NCBI RefSeq assembly: GCF_055900595.2
Contig: NZ_CM148325.1
Reading direction: 5' to 3' (one strand)
DNA length: 64,000 nucleotides
Shown: positions 35,770-38,645 of the stretch, piece after piece
Layout of the letters: each line of letters starts with the position of its first letter
Numbering within the stretch: the stretch's first letter is position 1
The notes under the pieces: model-generated
Told to the model about the DNA's origin: nothing
The model's database searches: none
What the model saw: the letters and a program-made list of their open reading frames with translations, nothing else
Position numbers and translations under genes: made by a program

Positions 35770-36225
35770 ATGCAAGAAGGGCAAAACCGTAAAACATCGT
35801 CCCTGAGTATTCTCGCCATCGCTGGGGTGGAGCCATATCAGGAGAAGCCGGGCGAAGAGTATATGAACGAAGCCCAGCTGGCGCACTTCCGTCGTATTCT
35901 GGAAGCATGGCGTAATCAACTCAGGGATGAAGTCGATCGCACCGTTACACATATGCAGGATGAAGCAGCCAACTTCCCGGACCCGGTAGACCGTGCAGCC
36001 CAGGAAGAAGAGTTCAGCCTCGAACTGCGTAACCGCGATCGCGAGCGTAAGCTGATCAAAAAGATCGAGAAAACGCTGAAAAAAGTGGAAGACGAAGATT
36101 TCGGCTACTGCGAATCTTGCGGTGTTGAAATTGGTATTCGTCGTCTGGAAGCGCGCCCGACAGCCGATCTGTGCATCGACTGCAAAACGCTGGCTGAAAT
36201 TCGCGAAAAACAGATGGCTGGCTAA
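35770..36225 (+). CDS. dksA: RNA polymerase-binding transcription factor DksA
   Basis: 151 aa from [20 protein letters not shown]4 zinc finger [25 protein letters not shown]. Confidence 0.92.
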
Positions 36226-36291: not shown

Positions 36292-37188
36292 ATGACAGAC
36301 ACACACTATATTGGTCGCTTCGCCCCCTCTCCTTCTGGCGAGCTTCATTTTGGCTCTCTGATTGCCGCGCTTGGAAGCTTTCTACAGGCTCGCGCCCGGC
36401 AAGGTCGCTGGCTTGTTCGCATTGAAGATATCGATCCGCCTCGTGAAGTTCCCGGTGCCGCAGAGACCATCCTGCGCCAGCTGGAACATTACGGTCTACA
36501 CTGGGACGGCGATGTTCTCTGGCAATCGCAACGTCACGACGCCTATCGCGAAGCACTCGCATGGTTACATGAGCAAGGGTTAAGTTATTACTGCACCTGC
36601 ACGCGCGCACGTATTCAAAGCATTGGCGGTATTTACGACGGTCATTGCCGGGAGTTGCATCATGGGCCAGAAAACGCTGCTGTACGTATTCGCCAGCAGC
36701 ATCCGGTCACCCAGTTTACTGACCAGCTGCGCGGCATTATTCATGCCGACCAAAAACTGGCGCGGGAAGATTTTATTATTCATCGTCGTGATGGTTTATT
36801 TGCCTATAACCTGGCGGTGGTGGTGGATGATCACTTCCAGGGCGTGAGCGAAATTGTCCGCGGGGCAGATTTGATCGAACCGACAGTGCGGCAAATCTCG
36901 CTGTACCAGCTTTTTGGCTGGCAGGTGCCAGATTACATTCATTTGCCACTGGCACTTAATCCACAAGGCGCTAAACTTTCCAAGCAGAATCATGCGCCTG
37001 CGTTGCCAAAAGGCGATCCTCGGCCGGTGTTAATCGCGGCACTTCAATTTCTGGGCCAGCAGGCAGAAACACACTGGCAGGATTTCAGCGTTGAGCAAAT
37101 TCTCCAGTCAGCCGTCACAAACTGGACGCTGACTACCATTCCTGAGTCGGCAATTGTAAATTCAACATTCTCAAATGCGTCATGCTGA
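36292..37188 (+). CDS. gluQ: glutamyl-Q tRNA(Asp) synthetase
   Basis: 298 aa from [23 protein letters not shown] (class I aaRS HIGH-like motif). Confidence 0.88.
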
Positions 37189-37247
37189 GCTATGATTAGC
37201 CGCTATTTTTTTGTCCTGAATGATGTTTGACACTACCGAGGTGTACT

Positions 37248-38645
37248 ATTTTTACCCGAGTCGCTAATTTTTGCCGCAAGGTGCTAAGCCGCGAGGAAAG
37301 CGAGGCTGAACAGGCAGTCGCCCGTCCACAGGTGACGGTGATCCCGCGTGAGCAGCATGCTATTTCCCGCAAAGATATCAGTGAAAATGCCCTGAAGGTA
37401 ATGTACAGGCTCAATAAAGCGGGATACGAAGCCTGGTTGGTTGGCGGCGGCGTGCGCGACCTGTTACTTGGCAAAAAGCCGAAAGATTTTGACGTAACCA
37501 CTAACGCCACGCCTGAGCAGGTGCGCAAACTGTTCCGTAACTGCCGCCTGGTGGGTCGCCGTTTCCGTCTGGCTCATGTGATGTTTGGCCCGGAGATTAT
37601 CGAAGTTGCGACCTTCCGGGGACATCACGAAGGTAACGTCAGCGACCGCACGACCTCCCAACGCGGGCAAAACGGCATGTTGCTGCGCGACAACATTTTC
37701 GGTTCCATCGAAGAAGACGCCCAGCGCCGCGATTTCACCATCAATAGCCTGTATTACAGCGTGGCGGATTTTACGGTCCGCGATTACGTTGGTGGCATGA
37801 AGGATCTGAAAGACGGCGTTATCCGTCTGATTGGTAACCCGGAAACGCGCTACCGTGAAGATCCGGTACGTATGCTGCGCGCGGTTCGTTTTGCCGCCAA
37901 ATTGGGCATGCGCATCAGCCCGGAAACCGCAGAACCGATCCCACGCCTGGCAACCCTGCTAAACGATATTCCTCCGGCACGCCTGTTTGAAGAATCGCTT
38001 AAACTGCTACAAGCGGGCTACGGTTACGAAACCTATAAACTGTTGTGTGAATACCATCTGTTCCAGCCGCTGTTCCCGACCATTACCCGCTACTTTACGG
38101 AAAATGGTGACAGTCCAATGGAGCGGATCATTGAGCAGGTGCTGAAGAATACTGACACGCGTATTCATAACGATATGCGCGTCAACCCGGCGTTCCTGTT
38201 TGCCGCCATGTTCTGGTATCCCCTGCTGGAAACAGCACAGAAAATCGCGCAAGAGAGCGGCCTGACTTATCACGACGCTTTCGCGCTGGCAATGAACGAT
38301 GTGTTAGACGAAGCCTGCCGTTCACTGGCGATCCCGAAACGGCTAACCACTTTAACGCGTGATATCTGGCAGTTACAGTTGCGCATGTCCCGCCGTCAGG
38401 GTAAACGCGCATGGAAATTACTCGAACATCCGAAGTTCCGTGCCGCTTATGACCTGCTGGCACTGCGTGCTGAAGTAGAACGCAACGCCGAGCTACAACG
38501 TCTGGCGAAATGGTGGGGTGAGTTCCAGGTTTCCGCGCCGCCGGACCAAAAAGGGATGCTTAACGAACTGGATGAAGAACCGTCACCGCGTCGTCGTACT
38601 CGTCGCCCGCGCAGACGTGCGCCGCGCCGTGAGGGCACCGCATGA
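37248..38645 (+). CDS. pcnB: poly(A) polymerase I
   Basis: 465-aa protein [15 protein letters not shown]...; in-frame ORF begins at TTG 37227 but the conserved start position corresponds to ATT at 37248 (known non-canonical AUU initiation in E. coli). Confidence 0.8.

Follow-up and report, generated by a model that had tools for sequence, protein, structure and literature searches.

Poly(A) polymerase I (PAP I), the product of pcnB, is an enzyme with control over RNA decay and plasmid copy number; it is toxic if over-made, and the AUU start of its gene is the main brake on its synthesis. Initiation of pcnB at this codon is already known, having been published for K-12 in 2002, and several later papers attribute it to Binns & Masters (Mol Microbiol 44:1287; PMID 12068810). 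The actual pcnB start is given as the non-canonical AUU in PMC2939334, and according to PMC3561954 the codon limits PAP I synthesis to about 30–50 molecules per cell, an excess of the enzyme is lethal, and phylogenetic evidence points to initiation at AUU in many Proteobacteria. In reporter assays, initiation from AUU reaches ~1–2% of that from AUG, and in E. coli just two genes, infC and pcnB, have a confirmed AUU start (Hecht et al.; PMC5499595). Like pcnB, infC (IF3) has an AUU start that follows a Shine-Dalgarno and limits expression. The two genes differ in what the codon is for: the infC AUU serves as sensor in an autoregulatory loop exerted by the gene's own product, while no feedback loop is known for pcnB, where the described role of the AUU is simply to cap expression. 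The older UUG assignment nevertheless lingers in the literature, as PMC3561954 shows, the introduction of which names 'UUG' as the pcnB start while its discussion says AUU. A literature search for ribosome-profiling or N-terminomics mentions of pcnB returned nothing usable in main texts.

The pcnB locus of the window and its identity to K-12

The window analyzed here, a stretch of 64,000 nucleotides from contig NZ_CM148325.1, has sfsA, dksA and gluQ upstream of pcnB and folK downstream in its ORF list, as E. coli does; the neighborhood dksA-gluQ-pcnB-folK expected of pcnB is thus present, in the order annotated in K-12 and in the RefSeq strains. The protein is identified as a PcnB equivalog by a score of 997.6 bits against NF008634, the NCBIfam PcnB profile (cut-off 702), with a score of 525.4 against TIGR01942 (cut-off 305.65), and it is 99% identical to the cluster representative P0002. 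The K-12 MG1655 sequence is identical to that of the window from the gluQ stop, through the leader, to at least codon 29 of pcnB, and the curated K-12 gene, b0143 (157729..159126; 1398 nt, 465 aa), begins at the same ATT. K-12 therefore has the same gene, with the same ATT and GAGGTG Shine-Dalgarno in the same neighborhood; the start region shows no difference, and the protein of the window differs at a few residues elsewhere. Codon 29 (37332-37334) is GTG (Val) in the window, whereas 71 of 79 species have ATG (Met) there, and some deposited truncated versions of PcnB begin near this codon.

When the 301 bases 37100-37400 were compared with complete E. coli genomes, 5424 of 5426 matched at 96–100% identity, and one strain, Z0117EC0005, was 100% identical. 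Identity of at least 99% over these bases was reached in only 15 of the 5424, which places the source strain in a less common E. coli lineage. The 60 bases 37227-37286, on the other hand, match at 99% or more, i.e. are identical, in 5418 of 5424 complete genomes. Because the sequence is identical, we infer that AUU initiation, translational limitation and toxicity, as described for K-12, extend to the source strain. In the mechanism that would follow from this, the GAGGUG Shine-Dalgarno at 37238-37243 positions the 30S subunit, the pairing of the initiator tRNA with AUU would be imperfect and initiation consequently inefficient, and this inefficiency would hold PAP I, an excess of which is toxic, to very small amounts. 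Discrimination by IF3 against AUU may contribute, by analogy with infC.

In the pcnB frame, on the plus strand, the codons read TGA (37221), TGT, TTG (37227), ACA, CTA, CCG, AGG, TGT, ACT and ATT (37248), and then TTT, ACC, CGA, GTC, GCT, AAT, TTT and TGC. The in-frame TGA stop (37221..37223) is the upstream limit of the frame, and the first canonical in-frame start after it is the TTG at 37227..37229, the only such start upstream of the conserved PcnB protein in this window. As had been stated from the sequence alone, the ORF can start there (37227..38645, 472 aa), and a mechanical ORF listing places the start at this codon; lacking a Shine-Dalgarno and being poorly conserved, it is judged here to be a non-start. 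The Shine-Dalgarno GAGGTG (37238..37243) lies 4 nt before the ATT, with 6 nt separating its GAGG core from that codon. The ATT itself (37248..37250), followed immediately by FTRVANFC, opens the pcnB CDS for poly(A) polymerase I (37248..38645, 465 aa plus stop; ORF list, PGAP and NF008634), and position 1 of the NF008634 profile aligns to residue 8 of the TTG-initiated ORF, which is the ATT codon. Downstream of it lie the conserved N-terminal segment of codons 2–11 (37251..37280) and a GTG at codon 12 (Val; 37281..37283). An upstream ATG, which the original prediction had also mentioned as an alternative start, does not qualify: both ATGs, at 37220 and 37223, belong to another frame (+2 relative to that of pcnB), and the in-frame TGA falls within the stretch they cover.

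We conclude that this is pcnB of an E. coli strain, translated from the non-canonical AUU at 37248, and put the probability of this reading at about 95%. The central claim of the original prediction, that pcnB starts at the ATT before FTRVANFC and not at the upstream TTG, is thus upheld by the identity to K-12, the curated CDS and, as described below, the conservation and the Shine-Dalgarno. Its further suggestion, that this is the known rare AUU that limits poly(A) polymerase I in E. coli, agrees with the literature on K-12. For the window, the AUU start matters only as a point of annotation, namely that the correct PcnB is 465 aa long.

Conservation of the AUU codon and the rival starts

The spacing of a Shine-Dalgarno relative to 37248 had been proposed as a check on the start, and the outcome favored the ATT. 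Duplex energies with the anti-SD sequence ACCUCCUUA were −7.2 kcal/mol for ATT 37248, +0.4 kcal/mol for TTG 37227 and +0.5 kcal/mol for GTG 37281. The duplex upstream of the ATT includes GAGGU and stops 4 nt short of the start codon; of random 20-mers taken from the window, just 1.6% attain its energy. A correctly spaced Shine-Dalgarno is therefore present for the ATT and for neither the TTG nor the GTG. The statement that pcnB has a 'poor ribosome binding site' (PMC3561954) is not obviously borne out by a GAGGUG duplex whose computed strength falls in the top 1.6%.

For the comparative analysis we used 80 species-level Enterobacteriaceae loci whose proteins are 86–100% identical. All 80 have ATT at the aligned start position and GAGGTG at −10 to −5, and the comparison yielded no conserved canonical start that could replace the ATT. 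That the ATT is invariant in all of these loci, and that 37227-37286 is identical in nearly all complete E. coli genomes, makes it a feature beyond chance. The same N-terminus could be followed further, in representatives at 67–48% identity that were traced to DNA (L083-L089). Down to 55% identity, ATT (L083-L086) or ATC (L087) precedes the same N-terminal motif: three relatives have GAGGTG-N4-ATT (L083, L084 and L086; N-termini of two of the three, IFTRVSNFYRHVL and ILKRITQLYRSLV), one has GAGGA-N7-ATT (L085; IITKVINLYHRLF), and one has ATC without a canonical start (L087; IRRVIELCKKVI). The two most diverged have canonical starts, ATG at 51% identity (L088; MLIIKKLFKKIF) and GTG at 48% (L089; VNTIITFIKKLL). 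Since the nucleotides diverge while the amphipathic (hydrophobic/basic) motif persists, the N-terminal constraint acts on the protein. The distribution of start codons among these sequences points to a replacement of the canonical start by AUU (or AUC) in the enterobacterial lineage and its neighbors, and PMC3561954 credits Binns & Masters with having earlier concluded the same for AUU.

Three other in-frame starts have to be weighed against the AUU. The one that survives best would not displace it, but would add a shorter isoform, initiated at the in-frame ATG 37401 (Met52) of an mRNA transcribed from pS1, an internal sigma-S promoter, and would account for the presence of two PAP I bands in Western blots. 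A shorter PAP I isoform has been speculated on (PMC2939334), GAAGG precedes ATG 37401, and codons 41–44 just upstream of it (CGC, AAA, GAT and ATC; 37368-37379) are unusually invariant at synonymous sites. Even so, we consider the isoform unlikely, as the activity of pS1 was reported to be confined to stationary-phase cells lacking ppGpp (PMC2939334) and 56 of 79 species carry Leu (CTC/CTT/CTG) in place of this Met. The latter count means that a Met52 isoform cannot be a conserved feature, and as such it was rejected. The start that Liu & Parkinson first proposed was probably ATG 37401.

A start at the upstream in-frame TTG 37227 would give 472 aa, with MTLPRCT added in front of IFTRVANFC. In its favor, no other canonical start precedes this TTG in the ORF, the 472-aa form of the exact protein has been deposited on 424 contigs, and UUG is the initiation codon named in the introduction of PMC3561954. 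Moreover, TTG 37227 lies downstream of a promoter-like site (37168-37196), and if that site is a promoter, the codon would be on the mRNA and low-level initiation from it would be possible. Against this, no Shine-Dalgarno lies upstream of the TTG, the sole Shine-Dalgarno being situated between it and the ATT. In the alignment, the TTG falls in the least conserved segment of the leader, between a conserved promoter-like block (37159-37213) and an equally named initiation block (37231-37283) that is conserved as well. At −21, 26 of the 80 species have TTG and 2, both of them Salmonella subspecies, have ATG, but the remaining 52 have a non-start codon; in 43 of 80, the frame contains no canonical start at all from the closest stop upstream to the ATT, and in 5 of 80 a stop in frame, located −15 to −21, lies at or 3' of the TTG position. 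Finally, the ATT is where the gene starts in the curated K-12 annotation and in PGAP and where the NCBIfam profile begins, and the published experiments, as PMC2939334 and PMC3561954 present them, assign AUU and not TTG. Initiation at the TTG is thus very improbable.

The downstream in-frame GTG 37281, which most ab initio gene callers predict as the start of a 454-aa protein, has in its favor that it is invariant in 80 of 80 species, third base included, and that the 454-aa form is the commonest deposited version of the exact protein (612 contigs), but we give it next to no credence, because the AAGG before it abuts the codon without a spacer, because diverged relatives keep the hydrophobic/basic motif upstream of the GTG position despite nucleotide change, and because the homologs with canonical starts, L088 and L089, open with that same motif. 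In addition, the amino acids of codons 2–11, which precede the GTG, are invariant in 79–80 species, and where nucleotides do vary in this segment, at five sites, the change is always a synonymous one at a third position. This is constraint at the protein level, which indicates that the segment is translated and argues against a start at 37281. The AUU at 37248 is, then, the start with which the Shine-Dalgarno, the conservation and the published work agree.

Nucleotide-level constraint and the upstream leader

The region from −11 to +27 around the ATT (37237-37274) is nearly invariant in the 80 species, including its synonymous sites and a rare CGA codon, and codons 1–9 form the lowest-entropy window of pcnB (0.055 bits, against a median of 0.94). 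Of the control genes, gluQ and folK vary at the synonymous sites of their starts in the usual way. In dksA, codons 1–14 (35770-35811) have fully invariant nucleotides in all 51 of the 51 Enterobacteriaceae loci with an anchorable start, a pattern that suggests nucleotide-level constraint on the dksA initiation region as well. With an invariant start that is even longer (14 codons), dksA led us to reject the notion that the synonymous invariance of pcnB codons 1–9 is unique to a gene with an AUU start.

Neither a supported RNA structure nor an Rfam family was found that would explain the invariance from −11 to +27. The minimum free energy fold of 37186-37330 contains a small hairpin in which GGUG of the Shine-Dalgarno pairs with UACC at 37253-56 and the AUU lies in the loop. 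This region folds no better than its shuffles (z = +1.19), no covariation could be counted in the hairpin, whose paired bases never vary in the 80 species, and the pairing is disrupted in the relatives L083 and L086; the hairpin was accordingly rejected as a supported feature. A search of 36900-37600 against Rfam gave no known RNA family at E <= 1. It can be speculated, on the strength of the alignment, that 37237-37274 acts as a sequence-specific element in regulation, setting or modulating the weak AUU initiation beyond what the Shine-Dalgarno and the coding function require, the candidates being a protein or sRNA site or an IF3-sensitive context, but we regard such an element as doubtful.

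Further upstream, a consensus scan identified the promoter-like sequence TTCTCA-17 nt-TATGAT on the plus strand at 37168..37196, where it overlaps the 3' end of gluQ and falls inside the conserved block 37159-37213 in the alignment of 80 sequences. Promoters designated pB, p1 and p2 are described upstream of the pcnB ATT in PMC2939334, and the promoter-like site is probably the published pB; the same account locates the originally proposed pcnB promoter downstream of the actual AUU start. In E. coli YD786 (NZ_CP013112.1; L091 1189-2397), the gene for an IS4-like ISVsa5 transposase lies between gluQRS and pcnB, at a position corresponding to ~37180 of the window, and this insertion breaks the conserved promoter-like block.

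The leader also contains an out-of-frame ORF of 15 codons, from ATG 37220 to TAA 37267 (ATG, ATG, TTT, GAC and so on), which overlaps both the Shine-Dalgarno and the ATT of pcnB. The anti-SD duplex check gave no Shine-Dalgarno of its own for this ORF, and since its ATGs are absent outside Escherichia, it was rejected as a conserved regulator.

The start codon in public annotation

The original prediction held that automated callers would misplace the pcnB start. Ab initio callers and older pipelines bear this out, but not the current NCBI PGAP, which uses the ATT: in all four of the PGAP-annotated RefSeq E. coli genomes inspected, including the identical strain, pcnB is a 1398-nt gene starting at the equivalent of window position 37248. 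The comparison with curated E. coli annotation that had been recommended gave the same position, as b0143 shows. As a by-product, the deposited sequences provide a measure of inconsistency in public annotation, the exact protein of the window being found in three lengths: 454 aa, from GTG 37281, on 612 contigs; 472 aa, from the TTG, on 424; and 465 aa, from the ATT, on 378. The downstream GTG is thus a commoner mis-call than the upstream TTG. Among the best 120 cluster representatives, 51 begin with M-FTRVANFC, 14 carry upstream extensions (e.g. MTLPRCTI), and ~55 begin downstream, mostly with MLSRE.

In Salmonella enterica, the two subspecies sampled (L022 and L023) have ATG, and not TTG, at −21, without a preceding Shine-Dalgarno. 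A 472-aa cluster of 2921 members is deposited for Salmonella PcnB beside the 465-aa form, and as both forms are deposited, the Salmonella annotation is split between two starts. The start of the neighboring gluQ also varies with the source of the annotation, the curated K-12 gene beginning at an upstream ATG (window 36262; 927 nt, 308 aa) and the PGAP gene at an ATG 30 nt downstream (36292; 897 nt); the downstream Met is conserved in 70 of 78 species.
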